From Bacillales bacterium UBA3206 (GTDB lineage: Bacteria > Bacillota_I > Bacilli_A > Acholeplasmatales > Anaeroplasmataceae): a DNA stretch of 64,000 nucleotides. The stretch is taken from NCBI GenBank assembly GCA_002363705.1, contig DEWQ01000011.1, forward strand, positions 154,168 through 218,167, read 5' to 3'. The position numbers were made by a program, and so were the translations under genes. The notes under the pieces were generated by a model that was not told the origin of the DNA, made no database searches, and was given only the letters and a program-made list of their open reading frames with translations. Below are positions 10,015 to 28,510 of this stretch, one piece after another (the first letter of the stretch is position 1; each line of letters begins with the position of its first letter).

Positions 10015-10066
10015 AATTTTATCTCCTTGTTACCTAATTTTTTTATAGTAATAACAAGTAGCATAA

Positions 10067-10276: not shown

Positions 10277-10423
10277 TTTAAATAACCAAAAAACTAGAAA
10301 AAACCGCATCACTAAAGGATTTTTACTACTTTTAGATGATTTATTTTAAATATTAAATTCGGGCACTCATCGGGAACCACCCGTTACTAAGTGTTATCAA
10401 ACAACACTATTTTAACTTAATTC

Positions 10424-10666
10424 TCATTCACGTGCAATCTTTAATTTTTTTCTAGAAATCAATTCTAACATTTCCTCTTTATTGTTATGGATTCTATCGT
10501 CAATCACCAATTCTAGTAGAAGCTTCAATGCATCTCTGATTTCTTTTCCAGCAAGTCCTAATCTAATCAAATCATATCCATCTACTGATAAATCAGACAA
10601 GGCTGAAGTCGAATTAAATGATGCTGGTATTAAATTATATAACTCAAAATAATTGAATTTTACCAT
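10424..10666 (-). CDS. Hypothetical 80-aa protein (weak resemblance to the C-terminal tail of CCA-adding tRNA nucleotidyltransferases)
   Basis: Its start overlaps the Fic stop by 7 nt. 'GYDLIRLGLAGKEIRDALKLLLELVIDD' recalls the C-terminal segment of Bacillus CCA enzymes, but the similarity was judged by eye only. Confidence 0.3.
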   Translation of the reverse strand: MVKFNYFELYNLIPASFNSTSALSDLSVDGYDLIRLGLAGKEIRDALKLLLELVIDDRIHNNKEEMLELISRKKLKIARE

Positions 10667-11715
10667 TCTTTAATTAAATCATATAAATAATTATTCTTAT
10701 ATATTTTTTCTTTTCCAACTTGCTCTGAAGTTAAAACACCCAATTCTTCTAATTCTGAAAGATATTTTCCTGCTGTATTTCTAGAAACGGATAATTTCTC
10801 TCTTAAATATTCATTTTTAGTATAAAAATCATAAAATAAATATTCTATTAATTCTTCAGAATAAATCTTTGGTTTATTTTGCTTCACTAGATTTTTGCAA
10901 TTATCCATCGCTTTTCTAAATTTATCAATAAATCCTAAAGTGAATATGGATGTTTGTTCAACTCCATTAATCATATATAACAAATAATTTTTTATATATT
11001 TATTATCAATCCTCATATCATAAAGGCATTTATAATATTCTTCCCTATTTGAATTAATATATTTTGACAAATATAAAATAGGAAGAGATAACTTTTGTTG
11101 TAAAACTAAATATAATACATTTAAGATTCTTCCTGTTCTACCATTTCCATCATGAAATGGATGAATTGATTCAAATTGATAATGAATCATAGACATCTTG
11201 ATAAGCGGATCTGTATTTTCAAGTTCATCATAATTAATGTATTTTTCTAGGTTTGATAAATAATCTCTTATTTCATTCTCACTTTGAGGTGGATTATGAA
11301 GTATTTCTTTGGTTTTAGTATTCATAATAACTGTACCTGGTATCTTTCTAATTCCACCAACATTAGGTTCAATGATATGATGAATTTCTTCAATTATCTT
11401 TGAACTAATAAATCCGTTATCCTTAACTTGAGAGAATCCATATAAAATAGCTTGACGATAATTAACAACCTCTTTAGATGCAGAATTTTGATTTTTAAGG
11501 GTTATCTCCTTAAACACCTCATCAAAAGTTGTTACTATATTTTCAATCTCACTTGATTCTTTTGCTTCACCTAATATAACAGCATTTAGTATAATATTAG
11601 GATTTGGCATTGTATTAATGATACCATTCAATTCTCCTAATTTACTATTTGCTTTATTTAATGCCTTAAGAATATCAATATCATCATAATTATATTCAAA
11701 TGGTAATTTGTGCAT
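10660..11715 (-). CDS. Fic-family protein (class II, auto-inhibited AMPylase) with C-terminal wHTH
   Basis: The Fic motif is 'HPFHDGNGRTGR' and an N-terminal inhibitory motif 'SSEIEN' fits (S/T)xxxE(G/N). The track ORF extends to 12033, but the M at 11715 (MHKLPFEYNYDD) has RBS 'gaaggtga' and the upstream stretch is repeat and terminator DNA. Confidence 0.8.
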   Translation of the reverse strand: MHKLPFEYNYDDIDILKALNKANSKLGELNGIINTMPNPNIILNAVILGEAKESSEIENIVTTFDEVFKEITLKNQNSASKEVVNYRQAILYGFSQVKDNGFISSKIIEEIHHIIEPNVGGIRKIPGTVIMNTKTKEILHNPPQSENEIRDYLSNLEKYINYDELENTDPLIKMSMIHYQFESIHPFHDGNGRTGRILNVLYLVLQQKLSLPILYLSKYINSNREEYYKCLYDMRIDNKYIKNYLLYMINGVEQTSIFTLGFIDKFRKAMDNCKNLVKQNKPKIYSEELIEYLFYDFYTKNEYLREKLSVSRNTAGKYLSELEELGVLTSEQVGKEKIYKNNYLYDLIKEW

Positions 11716-11823
11716 ATCATCACCTTCTGCACAAATTTTATCATTTTTTGTGCACGTTGTCAATTCGTGCACAATATCAATTTGAAACAAAAATAAAAAG
11801 CAGGGTGAGAAGTCCTGCTTAAT

Positions 11824-11879
11824 ATCTTTTTCTTTGCAATTATAATAATCGAACAATTTACTAAGGCTTAGAGGCTTGT
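11824..11879. repeat. ~52-bp imperfect direct repeat, copy B
   Basis: It matches 10225..10276; together the two copies bracket the Fic module. Confidence 0.8.
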
Positions 11880-11955
11880 AGTGCACAACTAACACCTTAG
11901 TTAAGAAGTTTTTATTTGTGTTAAAGGTACTGCTATATTTTACGATTTTTTTCTT

Positions 11956-11993
11956 AAAAAAAACTAAAAGCAGGGTTGTGGATTCCCCTGCTT
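11956..11993 (-). terminator. rho-independent terminator of rplM-rpsI operon
   Basis: An aagcaggg/ccctgctt stem is followed on the minus strand by a U-run, about 50 nt after the rpsI stop. Confidence 0.6.
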
Positions 11994-12041
11994 CTAATAT
12001 AATCCATAAATATGAACTTTTTGTCAAAATCAAACGTAATA

Positions 12042-12964: not shown

Positions 12965-12993
12965 ATTATATTATAATTACAAGATTATGTCAA
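12965..12993 (-). promoter_or_regulatory. Sigma-A-type promoter of rplM-rpsI (TTGACA-17-TATAAT)
   Basis: Read on the minus strand the sequence is ttgaca-taatcttgtaattataa-tataat, about 65 nt upstream of the rplM start. Confidence 0.6.
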
Positions 12994-12999: not shown

Positions 13000-13036
13000 T
13001 TTTATATAAAAAGAGGTGGCTATTCGCCATCCTCTT
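13000..13036 (-). terminator. rho-independent terminator of the sipW-AAA operon
   Basis: The hairpin aagaggtggc-tattc-gccatcctctt is followed by a U-run on the minus strand and overlaps the stop codon. Confidence 0.5.
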
Positions 13037-13730
13037 CATTAGCTTTATTTTCTTCCTCTATTTCCTTTAATAATTCTTGACGCATATCATCAAGTAGCTT
13101 TTGTTTAAGCTCCTCACTTGATAGCTTTTCTGAAGAATTTTCTTTTATCTTTTTCTTATTCTTTACAAGATAAATATTAACACTTTCAGTCAACATTATT
13201 AATAGAAATACAAATATTAATAATCCATAGATTAAATTTTTGTTTGACGCAAGCTTTCCTATATTTAAGAAATTAAATGTTTTAACATATATTCCTATAA
13301 GCATATCCGCTGTGACTAATTCATCATCAACCAAGGTATTATTATCACCCTTAACTATAAATCCACTATCTGTTATTTCAACTATTCTATGAACAATATA
13401 TAGTCCTTTAGTTTCACCAGATTCAGATTTATATATGATAATATCTCCAACATCACATGAATCATATGATATTTTCTTAAATATTATAGAATCCCCAGCT
13501 TTTATAGTTGGTTCCATACTCTTAGTTGGTACATATGAGTATGAGTATCCAAAATAGCTTACAGGCTTTTCTTCTCTTACAGCAATTACATTACATACAA
13601 GCATATAAATGATAAGTAATACAATTAATCCTATAAGAGAGCCTACTCCAATTGTTAATCCCTTTTGCACCTTTGGAGGTAGCTTTGATTTTAACCTTTG
13701 TAGTAAGCCTTGCTTTTTAGTCTTCGTCAT
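13020..13730 (-). CDS. ER/archaeal-type signal peptidase I (SipW-like) with C-terminal TM and charged cytoplasmic tail
   Basis: It has 'KSMEPTIKAGD' (Ser box), 'VHRIV' (His box) and 'GDNN', with an N-terminal TM, a second TM and an acidic/Lys-rich tail. Its start overlaps the upstream gene by 14 nt. Confidence 0.75.
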   Translation of the reverse strand: MTKTKKQGLLQRLKSKLPPKVQKGLTIGVGSLIGLIVLLIIYMLVCNVIAVREEKPVSYFGYSYSYVPTKSMEPTIKAGDSIIFKKISYDSCDVGDIIIYKSESGETKGLYIVHRIVEITDSGFIVKGDNNTLVDDELVTADMLIGIYVKTFNFLNIGKLASNKNLIYGLLIFVFLLIMLTESVNIYLVKNKKKIKENSSEKLSSEELKQKLLDDMRQELLKEIEEENKANEEDGE

Positions 13731-16371
13731 TTTCCTTTGCCCTTGCAGCTAAAGCTTTAGCACGAATTGCTTCACGTCTACGACGTAATAGTTCACGTGG
13801 ATCAACCTTTTCACCTGTTGAAGGTGTGCTATCCATTGCAGGACGAGCTTGACTACGTTCTGCTAATGTTCTTTGCTTTAAAGCCTCACGTCTACGTCTT
13901 AGAACCTCTCTTGGGTCCTCTTCAGTAGCAGATGGGGCTGCAGCCTCTACAGGTGCAGTACCATTAGCCTGTGCTTGACGCTGTGCAAGTAATGCACGAC
14001 GACGAATAATATCCCTATTACGCTCAAACATTGCAGCAGATGCTCTTTGTGGTGCTACTGCTTCTGGTTTAGACTCCTCTTCGTCGTCCTCTGCAGAAAC
14101 AACATCCTTTGATTGCATCATACTCTCTTCAGCACGTTCTTTTTTACGTGCTTCAAATAATGCCTTATTATCAAGAGGCTTTTCTTCATCCTCATCCTCA
14201 TCAACAACTCTTGCTCCAGCCTTATCAGCTAATGCCTTTTGTCTTATAGCCTCACGTCTACGACGTAATAGCTCCTTAGGTGATAATGATTCCTCTTGAG
14301 CCTCTTCCTCTTCACCATCATCAGATGAGAAGTCATTTAATAATTGGTCTAGCTCATCATCAATTGCCTTAACCTCTGCATTCTCCTGCTCGTCTTCAGC
14401 TTCTGCCTCAGCCTCATCAGCCATAGCAGCCTTCATAGCCTCTTCCTTAGCACGGGCTGCAGCAGCCTTAGCCTTAATGATTTCACGTCTACGCCTAAGG
14501 ATTTCCTTAGCATCTAGATGAGCCTTAGAAGCTTCTAGCTCCTTCTCTTGCTCCTCTACCTTCTTAGCTTCAGCCTCAGCCTTAGCCTTAGCTTCTTCTC
14601 TTTCCTTAGCCTTTGCTTCACGAGCAGCCTTTCTTTCAGCCTTAGCCTTAGCCTGCTCAGCAAGAATACGTGCTCTACGCTCTTGAAGCTTAGCCTTTGT
14701 AGCCTCTTGAGCTGCCTTCTCCTTAGCACGGGCCTCATCACGCTCAGCCTTAAGCTTAGCACGCTCCTCCTTAGCCTTAGCTTCTAGCTCCTCTTGTCTA
14801 CGTCTAGCCTCTTCACGCTCAGCAGCACGTTTAGCAGCACGAGCTGCCTTCTCTTCTGCAAGCTTCTTAAGTCTTGCTTCACGAGCCTGTTGCTGACGAA
14901 TCTTCTCTTCAGTAGATTGAATCTCTGCTAGTGTATCCTCGTATTCTTTCTTTGTATTATTGTAATCTACTTCCTTAAGTCTAGTAATAGTATCTAAGAC
15001 ATCTGCTTTCTTCTTAGCACGCTCTAGCTTAACTGGAAGTGGAACCTCTTCAAATTCATCCTCAAATGGAACCTCAAATAGAGGTGGATAAATTGAGTTT
15101 ATTACTTCTTGCATTTCTCTAAACACAAGCTCTAGTGAATATTTCTTCTCCATTCCAGAGTTTACTTTATCCTCAAGAGATTGCTGGTAGAATTCCTGAG
15201 TCTTATTTAAGAAATACTCAGACATCTCAAATTTTTCGATATTTTGAGAATCTGGCTTAAATTTATACTCATCATCCATCTTACTTAGATTACGAGCATT
15301 ACGATATGTATGTGACTTATATAGGTCCTGATTCTCTAGGTCTCTAGAACCATTATAATATAGCATTGTACCTACTGAGTTAGCAAAAATCTTATCAATT
15401 GTTGATGCCATCTCATCAGTATATTTATTTTTCTTTTCACGTACATTTACATCGAATGCTAATTGGTTATATCTATCAAGGAAAACCCATGTATTATAAC
15501 AAATCTTGAATTCAGGATTTTTTGTAATAATGTTAGTCTTTTGAATTGGGGGTACTACCTCTTTATAATTCTTTAAGGCTTGCATTAGCTGAGAAGAACG
15601 AAGAGATTTAAATTTCTCTTGTACATCCTTTGCTTTTTCAAAGGTGTCACGAGCCATCTTAACCTCAGATTCCTGCTCAGATTCCATTTTAACTGATAAT
15701 TCAACCTTAACCTTAGTTTTATCCTCTAGCTTGAAATCATTAGTAATAACTGTACTACGTGTCTCATATGAATCTAGATTCTTCTTCATAATTTGAATAC
15801 GAAGTGATAAGAACTTACAAATACGGTTAATTAGAGTCTTAATGAAACGGTTCTCATAAATTCCTAGCTCATCCTCAGAGAATGTTGTTAATAGCTTTGA
15901 TGGAATAATATCCCCGTTTTCCTTAACCTGTTTAATAAATTGTGTATGTGAGGATAAGTGTCTTACGGTATCAGAATTAACCTTCTTAACCTTCTCCATA
16001 GGTACAACTTCTTCCTCATAACGAATTGCTTTCTTAGGATCCTTTAAAATTTTTGAGATACTCTTAAAGCAATCATTTAATACTGGTATAAATGATTTTT
16101 CAAAAATCTTAGTTTCACGAATAGTCTTTGAGTAAACTGTCTTCTTTCCACCTTGGATTTGCTTTAGTAAAGCAGCTCCCATAGCTGACTTAGTGACACT
16201 ACCCTTTAGGCTTTCCTCGAGAATGTGGTAGAACTCACTTACAGATGCATCATTCTTTTCTGCATCAGTTGGCTCTAAGACCTTTCCATCTGAGCTATCA
16301 CCATTCTCATTTAGTTTTTCATCGACAACGATAGATTGTTCAGTCTTTTGCTCTTCTTCCACATTGCTCAC
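13717..16371 (-). CDS. Large hypothetical protein: ~480-aa N-terminal globular region plus ~400-aa E/R/K/A-rich helical tail with 5 'LLRRRREAIRxKALA' repeats
   Basis: It has no TM or signal peptide. The tail is an ER/K-rich single-alpha-helix-like segment (AEEKAARAAKRAAEREEARRRQEELEAKAKEE...) with five periodic RRRRE motifs that recur at nucleotide level (cacgtctacgacgtaatag). It sits 28 nt downstream of the AAA gene. Confidence 0.55.
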   Translation of the reverse strand: MSNVEEEQKTEQSIVVDEKLNENGDSSDGKVLEPTDAEKNDASVSEFYHILEESLKGSVTKSAMGAALLKQIQGGKKTVYSKTIRETKIFEKSFIPVLNDCFKSISKILKDPKKAIRYEEEVVPMEKVKKVNSDTVRHLSSHTQFIKQVKENGDIIPSKLLTTFSEDELGIYENRFIKTLINRICKFLSLRIQIMKKNLDSYETRSTVITNDFKLEDKTKVKVELSVKMESEQESEVKMARDTFEKAKDVQEKFKSLRSSQLMQALKNYKEVVPPIQKTNIITKNPEFKICYNTWVFLDRYNQLAFDVNVREKKNKYTDEMASTIDKIFANSVGTMLYYNGSRDLENQDLYKSHTYRNARNLSKMDDEYKFKPDSQNIEKFEMSEYFLNKTQEFYQQSLEDKVNSGMEKKYSLELVFREMQEVINSIYPPLFEVPFEDEFEEVPLPVKLERAKKKADVLDTITRLKEVDYNNTKKEYEDTLAEIQSTEEKIRQQQAREARLKKLAEEKAARAAKRAAEREEARRRQEELEAKAKEERAKLKAERDEARAKEKAAQEATKAKLQERRARILAEQAKAKAERKAAREAKAKEREEAKAKAEAEAKKVEEQEKELEASKAHLDAKEILRRRREIIKAKAAAARAKEEAMKAAMADEAEAEAEDEQENAEVKAIDDELDQLLNDFSSDDGEEEEAQEESLSPKELLRRRREAIRQKALADKAGARVVDEDEDEEKPLDNKALFEARKKERAEESMMQSKDVVSAEDDEEESKPEAVAPQRASAAMFERNRDIIRRRALLAQRQAQANGTAPVEAAAPSATEEDPREVLRRRREALKQRTLAERSQARPAMDSTPSTGEKVDPRELLRRRREAIRAKALAARAKENDED

Positions 16372-16399
16372 CTCCCACTAATATCATTTTAGGTATTTA

Positions 16400-17989
16400 T
16401 TAGCTTACCTTCTTTAGATCATTAATAAAATCTTGTGATACAGCAAATGCTCTCTTACCAAATAATTTATCTAGTAAGGCACTTAATTGATCTAGCTCAT
16501 TACGTAGGAATGAAAGGTTTAATGACTCAAACTTACGTAAAATCTTATTACATAGCATGTAATCTAGACCTTCAATTTCAGTAAATCCACATGCAATATA
16601 GCATGGAACGAATAATCTAATTTGCTTCATGATACGGTTTCCGAATGCAATCTTGAATTTTGCTTGGATGAATTCATCAAGCTTCATGAATGATTCCATA
16701 ACTCTTGCAGAAATTGTAATGTCTCTTTGTGCTGCCTTGAATAGCTCATCAATATATTCAAATGACATTTGAACATTTTCAGTATAAGGTGCATCAACTA
16801 GCTCAGCCTTATGGTTAATAACGATAGGTAGGGCACGGTCATAAACCTTATCTGTGATTGTAAATGTTGAGTCATCCTTATTGGCTGTTCCAATGAACCA
16901 AATATTTTGGTTAATTAATAGCTTACCATTAATAAATAGCTTAGGATCTGTTGGATCTGAACCAGAAACGATGTCAATTAACCATTGAGATGGATCTGGC
17001 ATTTCCATTACTGATAGGAACTCAGCAAAATAGTACTCAATACGGGCAAGGTTCATCTCATCTAGTACGATGAAGTTAGGCTTGTCTGAGTATCCAGCTT
17101 GGTATACACACTTTAAGAAATCTGTTTCATTAAATCTATGTGTGAACTCATTTAAGTATCCAAGTAACTCAGCACGGTCACGCCATGAAGGCTGTACTGA
17201 AATAATTGATGATGGCTTATTAAAGAACTTACCCATTGCATATGGTAGGGAAGTCTTTCCTGTTCCTGAAATACCTTCTAGGATAAGAACCTTAGAAGTT
17301 CCCATTCCTGCGATATAACGGGCAATAACTGGCTTTGCATAATATAGATGTAGCTGTGATGCAGCATATCCGATAAATCTATCGCATAGACCACTTAAAT
17401 CAAGCATATCATTTGATGTCATTATTGTGTATTCAGGATTTGATCTATAGAAAGCATCAACTTGAGTAAGCTTAATGAATCTTCCATTAAACTCCTCTTT
17501 CTCCTCTTCCTCAGCAGGTGCTAATTGAGGGTTGAATAAATCATCTGGATTAACCTCAGTTTCTCCACCTGAAATTTGGCTTACACGTAAAGCAAGAATT
17601 TTATTCTTCTCATCAACAAGTTCAACTACCTTCTTATTTAATAGCTGCACTTGATCAATAAGCTCATCCTTCTCAATTTCTCTACCTCTAAACTTATTAT
17701 ATCTCTTACATAGAATTACAATTAATGTAATTAGTAATACGATAAATGCAAGATTAATAAATAGAACTACAACATAAGCAATCCAGTCTAATGCATTCCA
17801 TTCACTATTATGAATAGAAGCATCAGCTAAATCCTTAAAATAATTCTTAATGTCTGTTCCAAACCATTTTCCAAAGGCCTTTCCAATACTTGAAAAGAAT
17901 GTACCAAAGTTTTTAAAGAATGCCTTTAAAAAATTATAATAATATCTAGCAAATTCACTCATATCTGCTCTCTCCTTCCAAGGACTCAA
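16400..17989 (-). CDS. Membrane-anchored McrB/AAA_5-like NTPase
   Basis: An N-terminal TM helix (WIAYVVVLFINLAFIVLLITLIVILC) is followed by a coiled coil. The NTPase motifs are Walker A 'GISGTGKTS', Walker B 'IVLDEMNLARIEYYFAEF' and 'IGTANKDDSTF', which resembles the McrB 'MNTADRS' motif. Its start overlaps the upstream sipW-like stop by 8 nt. Confidence 0.6.
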   Translation of the reverse strand: MSPWKERADMSEFARYYYNFLKAFFKNFGTFFSSIGKAFGKWFGTDIKNYFKDLADASIHNSEWNALDWIAYVVVLFINLAFIVLLITLIVILCKRYNKFRGREIEKDELIDQVQLLNKKVVELVDEKNKILALRVSQISGGETEVNPDDLFNPQLAPAEEEEKEEFNGRFIKLTQVDAFYRSNPEYTIMTSNDMLDLSGLCDRFIGYAASQLHLYYAKPVIARYIAGMGTSKVLILEGISGTGKTSLPYAMGKFFNKPSSIISVQPSWRDRAELLGYLNEFTHRFNETDFLKCVYQAGYSDKPNFIVLDEMNLARIEYYFAEFLSVMEMPDPSQWLIDIVSGSDPTDPKLFINGKLLINQNIWFIGTANKDDSTFTITDKVYDRALPIVINHKAELVDAPYTENVQMSFEYIDELFKAAQRDITISARVMESFMKLDEFIQAKFKIAFGNRIMKQIRLFVPCYIACGFTEIEGLDYMLCNKILRKFESLNLSFLRNELDQLSALLDKLFGKRAFAVSQDFINDLKKVS

Positions 17990-17995
17990 TCATTT

Positions 17996-18955
17996 TTACT
18001 TCTCTTCGTCGCCCTTTTCACTACTATCTGTGATATCTTTTTCATCATTTGGTTTTGTTTCTGCATTTTCCTTTGCAGCAGCTGCTTGCTCTGCTCTTAA
18101 TTGAGCTAGAAGCTCAGCCTTCATTTTTTCTCTTTCCTCATCAAGAGATTTCTTCATTTCTTCCTTCTCAGCCTCATTAGCCTCTTGAAGCTTAGCTGTT
18201 CTTATTTCCATTACATTCTTAATTACCATAAACATTTCAAATACTAAGAATAAACCTGTGAAAATAATAACTAGCACAAATCCCTTTTTAGGATTAGATA
18301 GCCAATTTACAAAATTACCAGCACCATCCCAGTGTGAAATGTATTTTGCTTTTACTTGATCTGGATTTACAATTTGTACAACCTCTTGAGTATATCTCAT
18401 TAAAGTTTTCTCTTCTTCTGTACAATTGTCGTAATAATACATACCATCTTTATATGATTTGTAGATATCTCCTTGTAATACAAAGCATGAAATACTATTA
18501 TCAGATGGATTATAAATAATATCTACAATTCTATGGGTATTAAGGAATGGATCCTTAGCACTTTCTGTATCCCAAAAAGTGATAATATCTCCAACTTTAA
18601 GCTTTGATGTTTTAAAATTAGTAGATGCCCATACCAAATCTCCCTTTTCAAATGTAGGTGTCATAGAGTCTGATAATACAATTTCATACCCTAGACCAAA
18701 AACATTTTTTACCTTACCTTCTTTAGATCCGGCAATTTGTGAAATTGAGAATAATAAAAGCAAGAATATAAAAAAGTAGAATATAGAATTAACCACAATA
18801 TTTGTTATATATAGCGCTTTTTTTCTTTTATCTATAGAATTAATTTCCATTTCTTCATCAATATTATCCTTAGTAGTAAGAGATTCCTCTTGTTCAATCA
18901 AATCATTATTTTCATTGTTAGTATCTTCATTCAACATATCTCTTGCTCCTTTCAC
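17996..18955 (-). CDS. ER/archaeal-type signal peptidase I (SipW-like, second paralog) with acidic N-terminal extension and C-terminal TM plus coiled-coil tail
   Basis: It has 'LSDSMTPTFEKGD' and the 'THRIV' His box; the C-terminal tail is 'EKEEMKKSLDEEREKMKAELLAQLRAEQ'. Confidence 0.7.
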   Translation of the reverse strand: MKGARDMLNEDTNNENNDLIEQEESLTTKDNIDEEMEINSIDKRKKALYITNIVVNSIFYFFIFLLLLFSISQIAGSKEGKVKNVFGLGYEIVLSDSMTPTFEKGDLVWASTNFKTSKLKVGDIITFWDTESAKDPFLNTHRIVDIIYNPSDNSISCFVLQGDIYKSYKDGMYYYDNCTEEEKTLMRYTQEVVQIVNPDQVKAKYISHWDGAGNFVNWLSNPKKGFVLVIIFTGLFLVFEMFMVIKNVMEIRTAKLQEANEAEKEEMKKSLDEEREKMKAELLAQLRAEQAAAAKENAETKPNDEKDITDSSEKGDEEK

Positions 18956-19096
18956 ATAAATATTCCTTATTTTATTTTATCATATTTAATTAGAAAATTA
19001 AATAGTATTTATTTGTAATAGCAAAAATAAGTCTATTATAAAAACAAAAATGTCTAGGTATTATTGAAATGATAAAATGTTAGTAGACACAAAAAA

Positions 19097-19543
19097 GTGT
19101 TTATTAACATTTTTTCTTTTATAATAAATAATAAGAATATACTTCTTCCTAGGAAGAATCACGGAGGTGAAAATATGGGAAGACCTAAAGGTGGAAAAAA
19201 CAAATCATGGACAGTGAATGAAAAATATGAAGTATTAGAGCCTATCATTAAAGGAGAAATATCTCAAAAAGATAGAGCACGAGAACTAGATTTGGCTTAT
19301 GGAATGATGACTAGGTGGCTTACAGCTTATAAAAAAGGTGGCATTGAGGCATTAAAGAATAAGCGTAAGCCTGGTAATCCTTTAGCAAAATATTCTAGTC
19401 GTAAAAAATTATCGTATACTGAGCAATTAGAGTATGAGAATATGAAATTAAGAATCGAGAATGAACGATTAAAAAAAGGATACACATCAAAGGAGGCGGA
19501 TCAAGCAAAACAAAAGAAATTAAACAAAAAGAATTCGCAATAA
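19097..19543 (+). CDS. IS3-family transposase OrfA (HTH)
   Basis: It opens 'MGRPKGGKNKSWTVNEKYEVLEPI...' and has a leucine-zipper-like C-terminus. Confidence 0.8.
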   Translation: MFINIFSFIINNKNILLPRKNHGGENMGRPKGGKNKSWTVNEKYEVLEPIIKGEISQKDRARELDLAYGMMTRWLTAYKKGGIEALKNKRKPGNPLAKYSSRKKLSYTEQLEYENMKLRIENERLKKGYTSKEADQAKQKKLNKKNSQ

Positions 19544-19590
19544 TAGAGTTATTAAGTAAAGATTTTAATATTGATTCATTATGCAAAGCA

Positions 19591-20409
19591 ATGGGATTAT
19601 CACGTTCTGGTTATTATAAATGGTTAAAAAGAAAAGGCACTTTAAATAGGTACGAAAATAGTAGAGTACTATTAAGTAATATGATAAAAGAATATCATAA
19701 TAATCATAAATCATGGGGATATAGACATATAGCAGCTGAAATAAGAAAAGACACTGGTTGGATATTTTCTGATAATCTTTGTCATAAGTGTTGTAAAGCC
19801 TTAAAAATACATTCTAAAGCAAGAAAACTTCCATATAGCAAGTCTGGTGAAGAAAGTATTAAATATCCAAATATGATTTGGAAAGATTGGAATACTACTA
19901 GACCATTTGAAAAGATAGTTACGGATACAACTATATTCTATAATCATAATAAACAATATGATTTAACTTTATATATTGATGTTTTCAACAATGAAATAGT
20001 GGCATACGATTTAGCAGATGGTAAGCATGGAGCGAATACGGCAAATCATATTAGAGCACTAAAAAAGTTACTAAAAGTCAAAATAAAAAGAGGGTATAAA
20101 GACCTTGAAACGATTGTCCATTCTGATCAAGGTATCATATACTCCTCAATGGTATTCGCCAATACCCATAAAGATTATAACATTAAACGTTCTATGAGTC
20201 GAGCAGGAACTCCAACTGATAATCCAATTATTGAAGCTTTAAATGGTTGGATTAAGGAGGAAATGGCTGTCGATTTTGACTTGTATAAAACTAATAATGT
20301 TCATAAAGCAGTCAGAGATTATATCAAATATTATAACAATGAAAGATTAGCATATGCATTACAATACAAAAGCCCTGTCCAGTATAGAACAGAGCTCTCA
20401 TTTAATTAA
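19591..20409 (+). CDS. IS3-family transposase OrfB (DDE integrase core), -1 frame relative to OrfA
   Basis: The DDE residues are in 'VTDTT', 'HSDQG' and 'IEALNGW'. The frame offset is consistent with programmed -1 frameshifting in 19500-19590. Confidence 0.8.
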   Translation: MGLSRSGYYKWLKRKGTLNRYENSRVLLSNMIKEYHNNHKSWGYRHIAAEIRKDTGWIFSDNLCHKCCKALKIHSKARKLPYSKSGEESIKYPNMIWKDWNTTRPFEKIVTDTTIFYNHNKQYDLTLYIDVFNNEIVAYDLADGKHGANTANHIRALKKLLKVKIKRGYKDLETIVHSDQGIIYSSMVFANTHKDYNIKRSMSRAGTPTDNPIIEALNGWIKEEMAVDFDLYKTNNVHKAVRDYIKYYNNERLAYALQYKSPVQYRTELSFN

Positions 20410-20479
20410 ATATTTTTTTAATGTCTACAAACTATTGACTAGTTCATATTATCCTAGACATTTTATAGATTACAAGATA

Positions 20480-21490
20480 TTATTCATTATCAGCAGATGT
20501 GAATGAATAATCAATTGAGAATGCTTGTCCGAATATAGCATCGAAACAGTCAGCATCGAATCCTTCTAACCAATATGTGAATGTTAATCTATAGATTTGG
20601 TTAGCTGAATCTGTTGCGAACATTTCAACTCCTGTATATCCAGCAGTTGTTGGAGTTAAACCTGCATAATTTGCATTAGCCGCAACATACTTATCTCCAG
20701 TAGCATCAGAGAAATTAGTTCCTAATACTGCCTCGATGTATGAGTTTGCAGCATTAGTTCCAGCTAGAGATTGTCCAAAATTAAATATACTTGTTCCTGT
20801 TCTATCAGTATTAGGTGCAATAGATGAACTATCAACATATCCAGCTAATGTTTGAAGTCTTGTATCATCATTTCCAGCTGCACCTTCAAATGCTGTCTTA
20901 GCAGCTGTAGGTGTTTGTGCATCAGCTACTACAGATGTAGAAACAGCCTTAGATACATCAACTACTGAACGTAAAGCATTAAGAGATGAAACCTTAACCT
21001 TATCTCCTGCAGCAAATGACATTGATGAAGGAGTTGTAGCAGTGAAATCCTTTTGAATTGTGTATGCAGAAACTGTCGTAGTTTGTGATGTAGAATCCTC
21101 TGATATTTGTACCTTCTTATTGTTAGCACTAACCTTTAAGAATAGCTCAAATTGAAGAGCTGTTGTTGATGTAGTGTCAATAGTTACATCAGATAGAGTT
21201 GATCCATCTAATGATTGCCACTTATCATCATTAGCAAGAGTTGATCCAGCAGCAACATATGTTAATGCTCCTAACTCGTTTTCTGACTTATCAATTTCTA
21301 CTGAAGATCCCCAGTGATAGCAATCTGTAGAAATTAAGATAGAGTCTGTTGTTGATTGTACACCAACTGTAATGTTTGCAGTTACTGTTGCATTAGTTGT
21401 AAACCATGCAAATGTTGTTGTTCCTAGAGCTACAACAGCGAATGCCATAGATAGTGAACTTAATAATAATTTTCTCGAAATTTTATTCAT
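20480..21490 (-). CDS. TasA/camelysin-like secreted protein (SipW-type signal peptide), paralog 1
   Basis: The N-terminus is 'MNKISRKLLLSSLSMAFAVVALGTTTFAWFT' and the C-terminus is 'YRLTFTYWLEGFDADCFD' (compare TasA '...QFSFEATQWNG'). The protein is Thr/Ser/Ala-rich. Confidence 0.55.
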   Translation of the reverse strand: MNKISRKLLLSSLSMAFAVVALGTTTFAWFTTNATVTANITVGVQSTTDSILISTDCYHWGSSVEIDKSENELGALTYVAAGSTLANDDKWQSLDGSTLSDVTIDTTSTTALQFELFLKVSANNKKVQISEDSTSQTTTVSAYTIQKDFTATTPSSMSFAAGDKVKVSSLNALRSVVDVSKAVSTSVVADAQTPTAAKTAFEGAAGNDDTRLQTLAGYVDSSSIAPNTDRTGTSIFNFGQSLAGTNAANSYIEAVLGTNFSDATGDKYVAANANYAGLTPTTAGYTGVEMFATDSANQIYRLTFTYWLEGFDADCFDAIFGQAFSIDYSFTSADNE

Positions 21491-21617: not shown

Positions 21618-23126
21618 TTATTCCCACACGCTAACCAAATACCATTTCTCTCCTTTTGCACTAGGAGTTACTATTGTGTTTGTAAAGTCGAATAATGTTG
21701 GAACATCAGATGTTTTTCCTTCATTATCAAGATAATTGCCATTTTCATCAGACCATGCCCATCCCTTAAACGCGTGTGAATTGTTTGTGATATAGGCTGG
21801 TGAATCGTCTGATATCAGCATATTAAGAATTTGATGTCTAACAATCCTTTTTGTGATGTAGTTTGTATTTGGATTTTTTACCAAATAAGTAAGTTCCAAT
21901 GGATCTTCCTCATAGTGCTTAGTAGTGAATTGCATATCAAACACTAATTGCTGATCTAAAACAAAATCAATACAATCCGCATCCCAACCCTCAATCCATA
22001 ACGTAAGTGTCATAGAGGCTTTCCCATTGTCTCCATACTCATTTGATGCATTTAAGGATAAAATCTTAGCTGCTTCCACTGTGTCAAACCCCTTAAATGT
22101 TGAAGGGATATCATTGTAAGACATAATCTCACTTTCTTCTATTATACCATCAGCGCCTACACCAACACCATCATCCGCCTTCTCTGCTTCATCTTTGCGC
22201 ACCTGATTATAGTAAGAAACCCCTGCATTTTTTGTGTAGTCATAGGCAGCAGCTGCAGCTTGAGCAGCGGCTTCTGCTCCTGTAGCATTATCACGAACAA
22301 TATAGTCAGTACCAGCAGCTAGCTTTGTAGCATACGAACCATTTCCTTTATTCAATTCATAGAATCTAGGATTGCTATCACTTGATGTGGTTACAGCAAA
22401 ACGAGCTGCATCTGAAATATAGGCTCTATAATTTTGTTTAAAGCTTTCAGTTGCATCCGTTTTATCAACATCATCATATGTTGCAGTTCCATTTTGATGA
22501 TTATAGTTAATCATTTTTCCATTTGTCAAATCATAAGATGAAAAATCATGTCTAATATCTTCTGGGAAGCCATAATTGCTTTGCCCAACAGTTCTAATTT
22601 GGGTTTTAGGAATATATGTTCCATCATCATAAGTGAACGTTCCTGTAGAAAAATACACATCCTGTGGAGATTTAGTTTCAGACTTAAAATAAATTTTAAA
22701 CCTTACATATGCCTTACTAGACAATTTAAATATTGTCGCACGATTTTGAAAGTTCTCTCCATCTAAGGTTGTAAGTGGTTTTAAGGTTAGTTTAAAATAC
22801 TCAGCTACACTATCATCAGTAACCTCTATTACTTCACCCTTTTCAGTTAACCACTCATCTTTATTCTCGCCAGCAGATCTTAGGTCCCATCCCTTCATAT
22901 AAGCAACAATTGAAGCGGCAACATCAGTGCTTGTTAGTTGTCTCTTGTAATTTTCTCCGTCAACAGAAATCATCAAATCATCACCTGATGCAGCACCTAA
23001 TTCCATATCACTAAACCAAGCATTTGTATTTAACTTGAACCACGCAAATGTGACAGTTCCTGCAACTACAAACATTAGTACTAGAGTTAGTAAACTAATA
23101 TAAAGTTTTCTTGATAAATTAATCAT
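21618..23126 (-). CDS. TasA/camelysin-like secreted protein, paralog 2
   Basis: It has 'MINLSRKLYISLLTLVLMFVVAGTVTFAWFKLN' and C-terminal 'MTLTLWIEGWDADCIDF'. Confidence 0.55.
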   Translation of the reverse strand: MINLSRKLYISLLTLVLMFVVAGTVTFAWFKLNTNAWFSDMELGAASGDDLMISVDGENYKRQLTSTDVAASIVAYMKGWDLRSAGENKDEWLTEKGEVIEVTDDSVAEYFKLTLKPLTTLDGENFQNRATIFKLSSKAYVRFKIYFKSETKSPQDVYFSTGTFTYDDGTYIPKTQIRTVGQSNYGFPEDIRHDFSSYDLTNGKMINYNHQNGTATYDDVDKTDATESFKQNYRAYISDAARFAVTTSSDSNPRFYELNKGNGSYATKLAAGTDYIVRDNATGAEAAAQAAAAAYDYTKNAGVSYYNQVRKDEAEKADDGVGVGADGIIEESEIMSYNDIPSTFKGFDTVEAAKILSLNASNEYGDNGKASMTLTLWIEGWDADCIDFVLDQQLVFDMQFTTKHYEEDPLELTYLVKNPNTNYITKRIVRHQILNMLISDDSPAYITNNSHAFKGWAWSDENGNYLDNEGKTSDVPTLFDFTNTIVTPSAKGEKWYLVSVWE

Positions 23127-23243: not shown

Positions 23244-24086
23244 CTATACTAAGCTCTCATGGTATGCTTCGAATGACATACCAATCTTAAGCTTTCCTTC
23301 AATAATTCCCATTCTTTCGTTATTATTTCCATAATAGGCAACACAATCTGGATCATTTCCATCAAGCCACATAATTATAGAAATCTTATAATCCTCACCA
23401 GGATTAAAGTCTAGGAATGCTGTATGATAAATAATATTCTCATCATCCTTTGATGAATAATCAGCATTCCAATCTACTGTTCGATCAGTATGGTAACTTG
23501 AACCAGCAATAGCATTTTTATAATACTCTTCATTTTCCTCAGTAGATTCTGCCTTCTTATAGATAGTACCTGTTGTATCCTTTGTTGTATAAACAAGCTG
23601 TCCATCCTCTTCAGTTCCATGTGAAATAAATACCCAGAATCTTGCAGCCGAAGCTACATCACGAGTATTTTCTGTGATTTTGAATGTAGTTTCTACATCA
23701 CATTGCTTTCCACCTGTGTTAGCTAAATAGAATGTATATCCAATATAATTTCCAGCACTCGATTTGTATCCTCCATCATTATTATAAACGAAGGATTCAA
23801 TGATTTCAGGTTCTGAAATAGGCTGTGCATCAGAATATTCAGGAGCATTAAGGCTTCTTTCACCTTCGCCATCTACTGATTCCTTAAGTACTATTCCCAT
23901 ACCACTTAATTCATCATCAATATTAATTGTAAATCCTCCTGTACTCAAACCATAGTATGTTACAAGACCGATAGTTGTAGCAAGTAGTAAGAATAATACA
24001 ATTAATGTAGCTATTAACTTTTTTCTTCTAAACAAGCTGACCATACGGTCCTTGGCAAGCTTTTCTGATAAATTATCCTTTGCCAT
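23244..24086 (-). CDS. TasA/TapA-like membrane-anchored or secreted protein, paralog 3
   Basis: It has an N-terminal TM/signal and C-terminal 'KISIIMWLDGNDPDCVAY', the same motif as paralogs 1 and 2. Confidence 0.45.
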   Translation of the reverse strand: MAKDNLSEKLAKDRMVSLFRRKKLIATLIVLFLLLATTIGLVTYYGLSTGGFTINIDDELSGMGIVLKESVDGEGERSLNAPEYSDAQPISEPEIIESFVYNNDGGYKSSAGNYIGYTFYLANTGGKQCDVETTFKITENTRDVASAARFWVFISHGTEEDGQLVYTTKDTTGTIYKKAESTEENEEYYKNAIAGSSYHTDRTVDWNADYSSKDDENIIYHTAFLDFNPGEDYKISIIMWLDGNDPDCVAYYGNNNERMGIIEGKLKIGMSFEAYHESLV

Positions 24087-24284
24087 ACTTGGTTATCCTC
24101 CATCATTAATTTACAAATATCATAAAAAATAGTTGCAATATCGTAGCAATCTACTGATACAGCAACTGGCTATCCCATAGGGACCCTATAGCTTTGCGTC
24201 ACTAGATTGCTCTAGTTTAGCCCTCTATCTAGTAGTATTATATACGAAATCTAAAAATATGTCAATTTTTTATGCCTCTAGAGG

Positions 24285-26090
24285 TTACTCCTCTTCATCC
24301 TCTTCTTCATCAGATTCAGAGTCATCTTCCTCTTCATCAGCATCCTCTTGTGCTACCTTTTTCTTTGGCTCCTCTTGTGCTTCAGTAGCATTAGCCTCAG
24401 GCTCTACTTGGCTCTCCTCTGCAGGAGCTTCCTCAGTAACAGTGGACGCTTGCTCAGAGCTTTCAGTAGTTGCTTCTTGGCTATCATTTGCTTCTACAGC
24501 ATTCTGCTCTTCAGCGACTGGAGCTTCTACATTAACCTCAGCCGCAAGATTTTCATCATTATTTTCTTCTGCAGGAGCTTGCTCAGCCTCCTTAGCAGGA
24601 TCAAATGTATGCTCGTCCCACTTACGAAGTCTAATGAAATCAGGAAGCTCAGATTCAGAAATTGGCTTTGAATAATAGTAACCTTGACCTAGAGTTACTC
24701 CAAGTCCCTTTACATATTCAGCCTGATCCTTAGTCTCAATTCCTTCAGATACAACAACACGATGTGCAACATTTGCTGTTTCAATAAGCATCTTAGCAAA
24801 CTTCTCCTTAATTGACTTAGTCTCTTCCTTCTCAGCTGCAAGCTTTTCTGCATCTGATGTTGTAGGTCTAGGATTATTTGAATCTGCCTCAACCTCATCA
24901 AGGAAGAAATTACGAGAAATCTTAATCATATCAATAGGCTCTTTACTAATCTTTGTGATTGTAGAGTAGTCTAGATCAAATCCATCAACTGCAATTGTAA
25001 ATCCTGCATCACGTAGCTTTAATAGGTTTTGCTTAACGTTATCCATCTTCTCAAACATTGCATATCCTGAAATCTCAAGTACAATTGAAGAAGCTGCAAC
25101 TGATGCCTTCTTAGCAACAAGAACTAGATCATCAGCTAGTGATTCATATGTTAATTGCTTTGTAGATAAGTTAAGAGTTAAATGGAAATCATCACCAACA
25201 AGTGGTTGAACCTCCTTAAACTTAGAGCATAATAGCTCAAGTCCCCATTTACCTACCCAATAAATATCTCCACTCTTTTCCATGATAGACATGAACTTAG
25301 CTGGTGGTAATACGCCTTGCTCTGGGTGGTTCCAACGCATTAGAGCCTCAAAACCATAAACATTATCAGTATTAAGGTTAATGATTGGTTGATAATATAG
25401 ACAGAATTCCTTGTTAAGGATAGCCTTCTTGATTTCTAAGAAGAACTTGTAGTTCTCTGACTCATCAGTAGCAAGAGTTCTATAATACATTGTGTATTTA
25501 TTTCCACCCTCACGCTTAGAAATATATGTTGAAAGCTCTAGATTCTTTACAAGCTCTTCTGTAGTTCTTCCACAAGAAGGATACATACAAATACCTGCAG
25601 ATGCAGTAAGAGAAATAGAATCTCTTGTAGATACATAAAGCTTTCCTCTTACATCAGCAAGTAGCTGATCAGTTATTTTACATACCTGCTCATATGTTAA
25701 ATTATCCTTGATGAAAATCATAAATTCATCATTACTATAATTTGAAATTACTGTTCTATAAGGGAATCTTTTAACAAAGCGTTGTGCAATTTCTGTTAAG
25801 AATTCCTGACATTGCTCACGTCCGAATATATCATTCATTGATGTGAAATTATCAATATCAATATAGATTAGAGTAAATTCTCCAAATCTTCCAACCTTCT
25901 TAATATAATTAGAAATAGCTCTATTCATTTCAGCCTTAGTAATAGTCTGCTCTGTTAGATTATCGCTTTCCTCATGGAATTTCTTATAATTGTATTTAAT
26001 TAGGAAGAAAAATAATACTCCTAATAAAATTACTACTAGTACTGCAATTAATGTTACCATTAATGCATTACCTCCTGAAGTTAATAACAT
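24285..26090 (-). CDS. Membrane protein with degenerate GGDEF (SNDEF) and partially degenerate EAL domains; acidic C-terminal tail
   Basis: It has 'EALMRW', 'DGFDLDYS' in place of DDFGTGYSS, 'EGIET', and 'YSNDEF' where GGDEF would be. Confidence 0.7.
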   Translation of the reverse strand: MLLTSGGNALMVTLIAVLVVILLGVLFFFLIKYNYKKFHEESDNLTEQTITKAEMNRAISNYIKKVGRFGEFTLIYIDIDNFTSMNDIFGREQCQEFLTEIAQRFVKRFPYRTVISNYSNDEFMIFIKDNLTYEQVCKITDQLLADVRGKLYVSTRDSISLTASAGICMYPSCGRTTEELVKNLELSTYISKREGGNKYTMYYRTLATDESENYKFFLEIKKAILNKEFCLYYQPIINLNTDNVYGFEALMRWNHPEQGVLPPAKFMSIMEKSGDIYWVGKWGLELLCSKFKEVQPLVGDDFHLTLNLSTKQLTYESLADDLVLVAKKASVAASSIVLEISGYAMFEKMDNVKQNLLKLRDAGFTIAVDGFDLDYSTITKISKEPIDMIKISRNFFLDEVEADSNNPRPTTSDAEKLAAEKEETKSIKEKFAKMLIETANVAHRVVVSEGIETKDQAEYVKGLGVTLGQGYYYSKPISESELPDFIRLRKWDEHTFDPAKEAEQAPAEENNDENLAAEVNVEAPVAEEQNAVEANDSQEATTESSEQASTVTEEAPAEESQVEPEANATEAQEEPKKKVAQEDADEEEDDSESDEEEDEEE

Positions 26091-28510
26091 TACTCCTCAC
26101 CTAACTTTCCGTTACTCTTGTTTTCACTTGAAACCTTACCTGTCTTTAATAAGGCAAAGGCATCTTCCTTAGATAAAGCCTTACCAATATAATATCCTTG
26201 AATTATATCAGCACCAAATTTATGAACAATATCCTTTTGAATCTTAGTTTCAACACCTTCACAAATTACCTTATCTCCAAGCTCCTTACCTAGAGTAATA
26301 ATCTTTGAAGTTAATACCTTACTAAATCTATCTGATTCAATATGCTTTATAAACTCCTTATCAACCTTAATTGTATCAATAGGTAGCTCCTTTAAATAAA
26401 GCATAGATGAATATCCTGTACCAAAATCATCTAGGTGGATTGAAATTCCACGGTTCTTAAGAATTTGAAGCTTTTCAATAACTGTACTGAAGTTTTCCAT
26501 TAGGAATGTTTCTGTTACCTCTAAGGCAATAGCTCCTGGTCTTAGTCCATTTTCTTCAAACTTCTCTAAGAAATCTGCAACGAATCCTGCTTGAACAATT
26601 TGTGCAGGCGATACATTAACTGAAATATGAATATCATACTGCTCCATTTCCTTAGCAGTCTTAAATACATCCGCATTAATGAAGTTTCCTACATCAATGA
26701 TAAATCCATTCTTTTCAGCCATCTTAATGTAAACCTCTGGAGAGATTGTGGCATATTTTGGATTATTCCAACGAAGCAATGCTTCAAATCCACATACTCT
26801 TTCTTGATTTAGCTCATATTGTGGCTGATAGTACATTACGAACTCTCCACGTTGGATAGCAAGCTTTAAATCTTCCTCCATCTCGCGGTCCTTCATAGCA
26901 CTATTTTCTAGATTTACATCATATTTACATACATTTCTTCCAGCTCCCTTAGCACGATTTGTAGCTGTAGTAAGCTTAGATATCAGCATGTCATAATCTA
27001 TGTCTGTTTCTCCATCCATATCTGAGCCTAATACACCAAATGCTGGACGAAGCATAATTTCATTATTATTAATTTGAATAGGCGCCTTTAATTCCTCTAG
27101 CATTCTATCACAAATTTTTAGATTTGAAACCTCATTTGAGTTTTCATCAAGGATTACGAACTCATCTCCCTTTGTATGGAAGATTTCAAGGCCATCAAAA
27201 AATTCATGAAGCTTTTCTGAGAAGAATTTTAGTACATCATTACCTTGATCAAATCCAAGTAATGTATTAATATCCTTAAATCCTCTTAGGTTAACCATAA
27301 TGAATAAATATGGATCCTTAACAGATTTATATTTTTCCTTAACCTCACGATATCTTCTATCAAGAACTACTCCATTATCATCACCTGTAACAAGTGACTT
27401 AGTAGACTTTTCAATTAATATCTTATGATCAATATATTCTTTTGTAATATCCTTACCAATAAGTGAATAATCAGTACCACGCTTTGCAGAATAGAATTCA
27501 AAGTAAACATCATCATGTTCCTTGACTCCTTCTTCATTTAGCATACCAATCCATCCAAGAACAAATTTTCTTTGTTCCTTAATTAAATCCTTAAGTGGTA
27601 AATCCGTATCCATCAATGTCAAATCATTCATTGAGCTAATTGGAAGAGACTTAGTTTCAAATGCTGCCTTAAATGGTCTATTGTAAGAAATAATCTTTCC
27701 ATCAACCTTACATACAACAACAGCGTTTGAACCTCTAAGAGAAATTCCTGCATCAAGTGCTTGACCCTTATTAAGCTTTTTAAATAAGAAAATAAAATTA
27801 ATAACAATTCCTAATAATAATAGTCCTGCACCAATCCAATACATTAATCTAAATTGATTAACATCATTAGTTGTAATAATATCATCTGAGTTAACGAATC
27901 TTAAAAGCTTAAATGAAGAATAATCATCTACAACAATATATCCATCATTTTCTCCTGATGTGACAGTAAGACGGGCTTTATATACCTCTCTACCCTCTTC
28001 ATGTGTTTTATCAAGAATCTTATTAGATAATGTCGCAGAATTTGTTCTTGTTAATATCTCAAGAAGAGATGTTACACGAGAATTATAATCAACATTTGAT
28101 CCTATAACAGTTCCATTATCAATAAGAAGAATTGCATTATCCTCATCATTTAATGCATTAGCCATAACAGTTTGTAGGGCTACTCTTCCATACTCACTAC
28201 CATTTACATAATATACATAACCATCAGATGAAATAGCATATGTGTTATCTCCAAAAATTGAAGAATCATCTATATTTGTAGTTTCAACAGAATCGCTTCC
28301 GTTAACAAATAATGTATTATATTCAGCAATACTTGCATCAAGAGCACTACTAGATGCATCATATGCACTTTCACTTTGATAATATGCATTTTTGACTGTT
28401 GCAGTATCTACACCAGCCTGATAAACTGCAGTGATAGCAATTAAGCACACTAAGAAAAATATTAAAATTATTACATAAACCTTTAAATCTCTTGCGCGCA
28501 TTTTCATCAC
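26090..28510 (-). CDS. Sensor membrane protein with degenerate GGDEF (KGDEF) and canonical EAL c-di-GMP phosphodiesterase domain
   Basis: It has two TM helices flanking a ~200-aa extracytoplasmic domain and the EAL motifs 'EALLRW', 'LEVTE', 'DDFGTGYSS', 'KVDKEF' and 'EGVET'. Confidence 0.8.
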   Translation of the reverse strand: MMKMRARDLKVYVIILIFFLVCLIAITAVYQAGVDTATVKNAYYQSESAYDASSSALDASIAEYNTLFVNGSDSVETTNIDDSSIFGDNTYAISSDGYVYYVNGSEYGRVALQTVMANALNDEDNAILLIDNGTVIGSNVDYNSRVTSLLEILTRTNSATLSNKILDKTHEEGREVYKARLTVTSGENDGYIVVDDYSSFKLLRFVNSDDIITTNDVNQFRLMYWIGAGLLLLGIVINFIFLFKKLNKGQALDAGISLRGSNAVVVCKVDGKIISYNRPFKAAFETKSLPISSMNDLTLMDTDLPLKDLIKEQRKFVLGWIGMLNEEGVKEHDDVYFEFYSAKRGTDYSLIGKDITKEYIDHKILIEKSTKSLVTGDDNGVVLDRRYREVKEKYKSVKDPYLFIMVNLRGFKDINTLLGFDQGNDVLKFFSEKLHEFFDGLEIFHTKGDEFVILDENSNEVSNLKICDRMLEELKAPIQINNNEIMLRPAFGVLGSDMDGETDIDYDMLISKLTTATNRAKGAGRNVCKYDVNLENSAMKDREMEEDLKLAIQRGEFVMYYQPQYELNQERVCGFEALLRWNNPKYATISPEVYIKMAEKNGFIIDVGNFINADVFKTAKEMEQYDIHISVNVSPAQIVQAGFVADFLEKFEENGLRPGAIALEVTETFLMENFSTVIEKLQILKNRGISIHLDDFGTGYSSMLYLKELPIDTIKVDKEFIKHIESDRFSKVLTSKIITLGKELGDKVICEGVETKIQKDIVHKFGADIIQGYYIGKALSKEDAFALLKTGKVSSENKSNGKLGEE

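Follow-up and report, generated by a model that had tools for sequence, protein, structure and literature searches.

What is a relative of the restriction GTPase McrB doing between two signal peptidase genes? The question is raised by a block of four minus-strand genes at 18955..13020 of a 64,000-nucleotide (nt) stretch of DNA from Bacillales bacterium UBA3206 (contig DEWQ01000011.1), hereafter the window, which stems from a gut bacterium, is of low GC content (about 27–39%) and encodes a GTPase whose best homologues lie in source records carrying Anaeroplasmataceae or Acholeplasmatales names. Read in order, the genes encode an archaeal/endoplasmic reticulum (ER)-type signal peptidase I of family S26B (SipA), a membrane-anchored McrB-family GTPase (B), an McrC homologue without a nuclease (C) and a second archaeal/ER-type signal peptidase I (SipB). 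We consider it fairly probable, at about 0.6, that B, C and the peptidases constitute a membrane GTPase–peptidase complex that serves filament biogenesis and not defence, and that their genes occupy the distal end of a filament or matrix locus that is switched on through a riboswitch for cyclic di-GMP (c-di-GMP).

All four open reading frames (ORFs) that a first, sequence-only reading of the window had placed tightly packed on the minus strand were recovered where it had put them, and every motif that it had quoted is present. The longest ORFs encode 319 (SipA, 17996..18955), 529 (B, 16400..17989), 884 (C, 13717..16371) and 236 (SipB, 13020..13730) amino acids (aa), and the genes are real rather than chance ORFs because each has hundreds to thousands of homologues. 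The likely start of SipA is ATG 18937, not GTG 18955. That of B is likely ATG 17962, which follows a AAGGAGAG ribosome-binding site, leaves a gap of 33 nt behind SipA and yields a protein of 520 aa, the length seen in every homologue. The sequence-only reading was correct in its spacing of 28 nt between B and C, for the longest ORFs, and in its overlap of 14 nt between C and SipB. Its overlap of 8 nt between SipA and B was an error: SipA stops at 17996 and the furthest start of B, TTG 17989, still leaves a gap of 6 nt.

B begins with about 150 residues made up of an amphipathic segment, a single strong transmembrane (TM) helix (residues 65–83; 17714–17770) and a coiled coil, the last being a heptad stretch of Leu and Val at approximately residues 90–125 whose L-x6-L-x6-L spacing is kept in the alignment consensus. 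Pfam searches found no DNA-binding family in this N-terminal region. The GTPase domain follows (approximately residues 150–518; 16409–17515), with the motifs GISGTGKT, DEMNLAR and N361-x-D363, the last lying within GTANKDDST in the window. Among 32 diverse homologues, with identities down to 30%, Walker A, the Walker B region (DExN.A….F.E) and the NxD pair are invariant; the Asp after NxD is not. When a profile of these 32 sequences was searched against 177,635 distinct PDB sequences, the sole match was E. coli McrB (6hz4, E=5e-5), and the Pfam AAA_5 match of B stayed below threshold. The TM-anchored, McrB-like NTPase proposed from the sequence is therefore borne out, and an ordinary chaperone of the MoxR/RavA type, which would have undone that proposal, is ruled out by the sub-threshold AAA_5 score and by McrB being alone among the solved structures matched. 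Relatives of B are abundant (8,062 at E≤1e-3, 737 of them at E≤1e-30, among 1.84 billion cluster representatives searched). Most of the best-scoring 59 carry one to five N-terminal TM helices, and about a dozen, mostly of 700–800 aa, carry none. Identity to B is 65% in P0075 (source name Acholeplasmatales bacterium) and about 41–45% in loci from Clostridia.

The partner protein C matches Pfam DUF2357 (PF09823) at residues 81–213 (15733–16131) with E=3.7e-11, above the gathering score. DUF2357 is the N-domain with which McrC binds and activates McrB. The sequence-only reading had set this protein apart from McrC on account of its missing nuclease. The lack of a detectable nuclease stands, the distinction from McrC does not, and the fold search that it proposed for the N-terminal half thus has a positive answer. 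No nuclease family of Pfam or NCBIfam matched C, and the homologue alignment contains no invariant D…(D/E)xK. In an AlphaFold2 (AF2) model (overall predicted local distance difference test score, pLDDT, 64.5; 62–92 at residues 240–340), residues 231–480 are mostly helical with one short strand; neither the family search, nor the motif alignment, nor this region of the model revealed a hidden or degenerate nuclease. The conserved N-module of C spans approximately residues 40–470 and gives way to a variable tail of 414 residues (471–884; 13720–14961), 75% of which are E, R, K, A, Q or D, in agreement with its initial description as rich in E, R and K (ER/K-rich). The tail contains four to five copies of (E/D)LLRRRREAI+AKALA separated by acidic linkers. 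In related loci, which we number with the prefix L, the repeats are lineage-specific, again with acidic linkers between them: DLLAERRAAIAAKAK in L005, LSDEELEALM in L010 and L012, and KEKRVPSFKELQ in L033. A general functional role for the RRRRE-type repeat, for example as a c-di-GMP site, was rejected, as the strict motif occurs in C of the window alone among 7,187 ORFs.

Both outer proteins have the architecture of ER-type signal peptidases that had been read from their motifs. Each contains two hydrophobic segments (SipA, residues 53–71 and 227–245; SipB, residues 33–51 and 166–184) followed by a C-terminal tail, ER/K-rich in SipA and charged in SipB, and each passes the curated cut-off of 51.85 bits of the NCBIfam model for archaeal-type signal peptidase I, TIGR02228 (55.0 bits for SipA, 79.4 bits for SipB). 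The catalytic Ser in the SMxP box and His in the HR box are kept in 65 of 66 upstream and in all 57 downstream orthologues. The label 'SipW-like' given to both needs to be narrowed: judged by their sequences, SipA and SipB are members of the S26B family and not SipW orthologues, with scores of 60.6 and 58.3 bits where the SipW equivalog model NF046067 demands 190 bits. They represent two orthologous lines, 60 of the 66 upstream peptidases being A-type and 48 of the 57 downstream ones B-type.

Upstream of the block lie three minus-strand genes for subunit-like proteins that have a beta-sandwich core in common. The first gene of the locus, t280 (23244..24086), encodes 280 aa with an N-terminal TM helix and is the putative membrane-anchored base or initiator subunit. 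It is followed by T502 (21618..23126), a secreted subunit-like protein with a SipW-type signal peptide (GTVTFAWF), the motif WIEGWDADC and a C-terminal extension, and by T336 (20480..21490), a secreted, subunit-like beta-sandwich protein with the signal peptide GTTTFAWFT, also SipW-type, and the motif WLEGFDADC. T336, T502 and their homologues have in common a signal peptide that ends in (T/S)(F/Y)AWF and a C-terminal WxEGxDxDC motif. A variant of the C-terminal motif (W-L-D-G-x-D-P-D-C, here WLDGNDPDC) is common to t280, whose TM helix ends in YYG..GGF instead of (T/S)(F/Y)AWF. The T proteins match TIGR04088 (cognate_SipW) weakly. Their best structural match is a donor-strand filament fold, and further subunits of donor-strand filaments appear among the structural matches, namely the Sulfolobus 0406 thread at rank 2, DUF1102 at rank 6, CanX at rank 19 and the ABP pilin at rank 33. 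We regard them as a distinct family of probable filament subunits that is at best distantly TasA-like. A Flg_new (Listeria-Bacteroides) repeat in the C-terminal extension of T502 was considered and rejected; Pfam gave no match, and a weak precomputed match exists in the orthologue of L004 only.

If these genes work together, their arrangement should persist in other genomes. A scan of species-representative genomes confirmed at least 581 loci with a relative of B. Profile hidden Markov models built from the window proteins were mapped on 87 loci, 84 after removal of duplicates, and the denominators below count loci with enough flanking sequence. The best 80 loci come from Acholeplasmatales (including Acholeplasma granularum ATCC 19168), Izemoplasmatales, Erysipelotrichaceae, Ruminococcus, Lachnospiraceae, Christensenellaceae and Eubacterium ruminantium FB3002. 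Across at least 80 Bacillota species genomes the recurrent order is two GGDEF-EAL genes (not in every locus), t280, one to five T genes, SipA, B, C and SipB. C directly follows B in 66 of 74 loci and is slightly displaced in four more; of 60 loci, 54 have a peptidase downstream of B, and 53 of 72 have one directly upstream. With at least 5 kb of upstream sequence available, 43 of 47 loci contain t280, and GGDEF/EAL genes flank the cluster in 19 of 30 that are fully covered. Junctions are as tight as in the window, C and SipB overlapping by 1–17 nt in the relatives (source annotation calls). The adjacency is thus kept across orders, in Acholeplasmatales, Izemoplasmatales, Erysipelotrichaceae and several families of Clostridia, the outcome on which the sequence-only reading had staked its proposal. 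In the Anaeroplasmataceae/Acholeplasmatales relatives L001–L005 even the chromosomal site, between metG/GGDEF-EAL and rplM, is the same.

Two kinds of departure from this order bear on C and SipB. In three Ruminococcus species genomes they form a single ORF of 990–1000 aa (L065:7335-10304, L066:9822-12821 and L071:11784-14762), laid out as DUF2357 module, ER/K region, TM helix and peptidase. Conversely, both are absent together from four Acholeplasmataceae-like loci (L018, L024, L027 and L029) that keep B, SipA and t280. Because they are fused in three genomes and co-lost in four loci, C and SipB appear to be one evolutionary module placed on a B–SipA core. In the C-less variants (for example L018:10001-20649) small T-like secreted proteins come after B, followed in L018 by a surface protein of 2329 aa. 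The same four loci weaken the case for SipB as a peptidase dedicated to t280, since they retain t280 without SipB.

The leader of the locus ties it to c-di-GMP. Seventy-two nt before t280 lies a c-di-GMP-I riboswitch aptamer (24158..24232, minus strand; Rfam RF01051, 54.4 bits against a gathering score of 35), and directly upstream of the aptamer is a sigma-70-type promoter, TTGACA-17-TATAAT (24237..24265, minus strand), which matches at 12 of 12 positions. A putative expression platform (24122..24166, minus strand) consists of a GUUGC...GCAAC hairpin and a U-run. This hairpin, which a simple terminator scan did not detect, is a probable terminator; because it shares 3 nt with the aptamer's 3' strand, the riboswitch is probably an ON switch. 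Immediately upstream, two minus-strand genes (24285..28510; 806 and 601 aa) carry Pfam EAL and GGDEF domains and encode the probable makers and breakers of the riboswitch ligand.

A covariance model made from eight such aptamers and searched against the 87 loci found 55 same-strand c-di-GMP-I aptamers in 36 of them, often two or three in tandem. Against RF01051, aptamers of relatives scored 52–70 bits. Thirty-four lie directly upstream of t280, eight upstream of extra T genes and two upstream of SipA. For two aptamers (L010:309-393 and L043:8136-8220) the nearest labelled downstream gene is the upstream peptidase, 138 and 417 nt away, which suggests that the Sip–B–C–Sip block is able to have a riboswitch of its own. 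In nine loci of rumen and gut Clostridia (L055, L059, L062, L065, L066, L071, L075, L076 and L082) a small ORF of approximately 254–345 aa that matches the GGDEF/EAL profile stands right before t280, in place of the large GGDEF-EAL pair and the riboswitch, and this hints at a c-di-GMP input of another kind.

The sequence-only reading knew of no described system that couples an McrB-type motor to signal peptidases. One has in fact been named, CoCoPALM, in a single paragraph whose authors left its analysis for later publication (Bell et al. 2024, eLife 2024;13:RP94800; PMC11090510), and its architecture is the one found here. That paragraph describes an McrB-like GTPase with an NxD motif, usually followed by D or E, and an N-terminal FtsB-like TM and coiled coil; an adjoining McrC homologue (DUF2357), usually with a coiled-coil extension; and signal-peptidase-family genes in the operon (PMC11090510). 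Three of these four descriptive features, namely the NxD GTPase, the DUF2357 neighbour and the signal peptidases, are found in the window, and on the strength of these sequence features we assign the block to CoCoPALM. The likeness extends to the TM and coiled coil of the GTPase, to the coiled-coil or ER/K extension of McrC, to the operonic placing of the peptidases and to the Bacillota as hosts. The homology to FtsB stated there was reproduced here neither by Pfam nor by hhalign. Absent from the paragraph but seen in our loci are the c-di-GMP riboswitches, the GGDEF-EAL neighbours, the t280/T family, the two peptidase paralogues, the C–peptidase fusions, the C-less variants and the co-loss of C and SipB. 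A literature search found no follow-up paper on CoCoPALM.

How the block relates to better-known systems can be told from what it shares with each. With McrBC of E. coli K-12 (6hz4, 6ut6) it has in common Walker A, Walker B and the sensor-1-like N..D in B, DUF2357 in C, and the gene order B–C; it differs in that B has a TM anchor instead of a DNA-binding N-domain, C lacks the PD-(D/E)xK nuclease, the motif is NxD rather than NxxD, and the surrounding genes concern secretion and filaments, not restriction-modification. With the CoCoNuT/PDC-M26 systems it shares the NxD branch of McrB, coiled coils fused to both partners and an McrC often without an active nuclease. CoCoNuTs, however, are cytoplasmic and always come with nucleases, HEPN or other, as well as helicases and similar proteins. 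None of these occur here, and the present system has a membrane anchor and ties to peptidases and secreted subunits. The matrix-fibre operons tapA-sipW-tasA of B. subtilis and sipW-bsaA-bsaB-bsaC of C. perfringens likewise pair a dedicated S26B peptidase with secreted beta-sandwich subunits that have a characteristic signal-peptide end, but they have one peptidase, no NTPase and no c-di-GMP riboswitch; moreover, the subunits here belong to the separate WxEGxDxDC family and the peptidases fall below the SipW equivalog cut-off. The type IV pilus (PilB, PilC, PilD) offers a conceptual analogy only, in its cytoplasmic hexameric NTPase, membrane platform, dedicated peptidase, membrane-held subunits and frequent c-di-GMP control. 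There is no homology, as NTPase fold family, peptidase class (S26B serine versus A24 aspartic) and subunit fold all differ.

The sequence-only reading had suggested, as one option, a secretion or assembly machine for the neighbouring fibre-like proteins, and this is the reading that the genomic context backs best, through conserved synteny, the C–SipB fusion and shared riboswitch control. We envisage that high c-di-GMP would lead to read-through of the leader, and that the subunits would then be exported via Sec and held in the membrane by their own signal peptides. On the cytoplasmic side, a membrane-tethered hexamer of B would hold the stalk of C in its pore, as in McrBC, and the tail of C would physically link the B ring to SipB, a link that is covalent in some Ruminococcus genomes. 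At a fixed platform in the membrane, GTP hydrolysis could then gate or drive peptidase-coupled subunit release and polymerisation by donor strands, with t280 acting as the membrane-anchored base. Such a mechanism would resemble the peptidase-coupled, membrane-proximal donor-strand polymerisation model proposed for BsaA of C. perfringens (PMC11580942). In its most far-reaching form, which we put forward tentatively as a possibility, B–C–SipB would represent a platform of a new class, one that assembles filaments at the expense of NTP and in which a restriction-derived GTPase ring with an McrC stalk and an ER/K lever, at times fused covalently to the peptidase, couples GTP hydrolysis in the cytoplasm to signal-peptide cleavage and to the extracellular donor-strand polymerisation of TasA-superfamily-like subunits, gated by a c-di-GMP riboswitch and present also in lineages that are classified, by taxonomy only, as wall-less and Mollicutes-like.

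Several observations weigh against an energised filament machine. The motor or gating role of B is drawn by analogy with McrBC, and the closest PADLOC match of B is a candidate defence protein, PDC-M26A (E=2.7e-36). While the TM and heptad architecture of its N-terminus fits the description of an FtsB-like TM and coiled coil, homology to FtsB was not reproduced: no DivIC/FtsB family of Pfam matched even at E≤10, and hhalign against an approximate E. coli FtsB sequence gave a probability of 0.3%. The T proteins match no Peptidase_M73, TasA or camelysin sequence profile, and Foldseek returned nothing for them at E≤0.001. C is not universally required, given the four loci that have B but neither C nor SipB. 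The riboswitch is not seen in about 60% of loci, some of which are incomplete and some of which have the small GGDEF/EAL-like gene only, and its reading as an ON switch depends on the 3-nt overlap between aptamer and hairpin.

Other functions must therefore be weighed against filament assembly. B and C could form a static scaffold or checkpoint, that is, a nucleotide-dependent switch that localizes, clusters or licenses the peptidases or anchors the base of the filament while doing no mechanical work. The McrB family hydrolyses GTP slowly and acts as McrC-regulated assemblies (PMC11090510), which would suit such a switch, as would the occurrence of B without C in four loci and the tails of C, which are lineage-specific, repeat-bearing and of low complexity in the manner of multivalent tethers. 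The invariance of Walker A, Walker B and NxD nevertheless implies that hydrolysis matters; switch and motor are not told apart by our data, and we hold a purely static role to be rather unlikely. An energised role need not concern assembly, either. AAA+ unfoldases commonly perform membrane extraction and quality control, and the membrane-proximal location of B and its tight pairing with peptidases would fit a machine that frees the peptidases or Sec of jammed precursors or of signal peptides left after cleavage. We think this very unlikely, because McrB-type rings are plugged by McrC in the McrBC structures and do not thread substrates, and because the association is with one dedicated substrate family in one regulon and not with general secretion genes.

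A role in defence, the other option raised at the outset, takes its appeal from ancestry: B and C descend from McrBC, the best match of B in the defence library is PDC-M26A, as noted above, and the sister CoCoNuT systems are predicted defence systems (PMC11090510). The cluster would then be a module for defence or abortive infection, of type IV restriction ancestry, that rides on a pilus locus, for example by sensing filament-receptor phage. Yet Pfam identifies no nuclease family in the four core and three subunit-like proteins of the window, nor is there another effector among them; related clusters display just six tracked families, in custom profile maps of those families; and C, SipA and SipB have no meaningful PADLOC matches. 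Across orders the cluster has been passed on vertically and as one block, with the identities of B given above and a fixed chromosomal site in L001–L005, unlike typical defence islands. The fusion of C to a signal peptidase in three genomes and the control by a c-di-GMP riboswitch also speak against such a module. We judge defence to be quite unlikely. That four unrelated genes were packed together by chance is scarcely credible: the neighbourhood maps refute it, with an order kept in at least 80 species-level genomes of several orders and with fusion and co-loss besides. Nor did a phage origin find support, as PHROG gave no meaningful matches. Filament biogenesis by a membrane GTPase–peptidase complex remains the reading that we prefer.

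In the window itself the locus is interrupted. An IS3-family insertion sequence (IS) on the plus strand (19047..20464), with a helix-turn-helix orfA (19097–19543), an rve orfB (19591–20409) and imperfect inverted repeats of 50 nt, separates T336 from SipA. It occurs once in the window, is absent from this position in all related loci and shows no clear target-site duplication. As the four downstream ORFs are all intact, the element probably inserted recently, and it may have uncoupled them from the promoter of the riboswitch. On the far side of the block a second perfect promoter (12965–12993) serves rplM, and immediately downstream of rplM-rpsI, on the minus strand at 8929–12033, are a Fic/SoFic-like adenylyltransferase (10660–12033), a small ORF and a tyrosine integrase (8929–10014), which may mark the edge of an integrated element. 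Elsewhere on the minus strand, a 1156-aa protein with Flg_new repeats (38078–41548) sits between rplQ and ecfA1-ecfA2-ecfT in an otherwise canonical string of ribosomal-protein, energy-coupling factor (ECF) and truA genes, an S10-Clostridia ribosomal-protein leader (55684–55785) precedes the S10 operon, and 11 tRNA genes form an array (62858–63957) close to where the window ends.

The prevailing view is that fibres of the TasA type and related donor-strand fibres need no cytoplasmic energy for their assembly. A conserved pair of GTPase and activator that is wired to the dedicated peptidases calls this view into question for a large set of Bacillota from gut and rumen; B has relatives in at least 581 species-level genomes. 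CoCoPALM was already named in the literature, as an uncharacterised system; its riboswitch control, its subunit family, its two peptidase lineages and the fusion and co-loss of C and SipB are new here, as is its presence in lineages classified, by taxonomy only, as wall-less. The locus offers handles by which the proposal can be tested, including the c-di-GMP riboswitch as input, the substrate family (t280 and T), the C–SipB Rosetta-stone fusion and the natural C-less variants, and cultured carriers exist in Acholeplasma granularum ATCC 19168 and Eubacterium ruminantium FB3002. If the proposed NTP-driven platform proves true, it would be the first case in which a donor-strand-exchange fibre has an energised machine, and a clear one of a type IV restriction motor exapted from defence to a non-defence role in the biogenesis of the cell surface.

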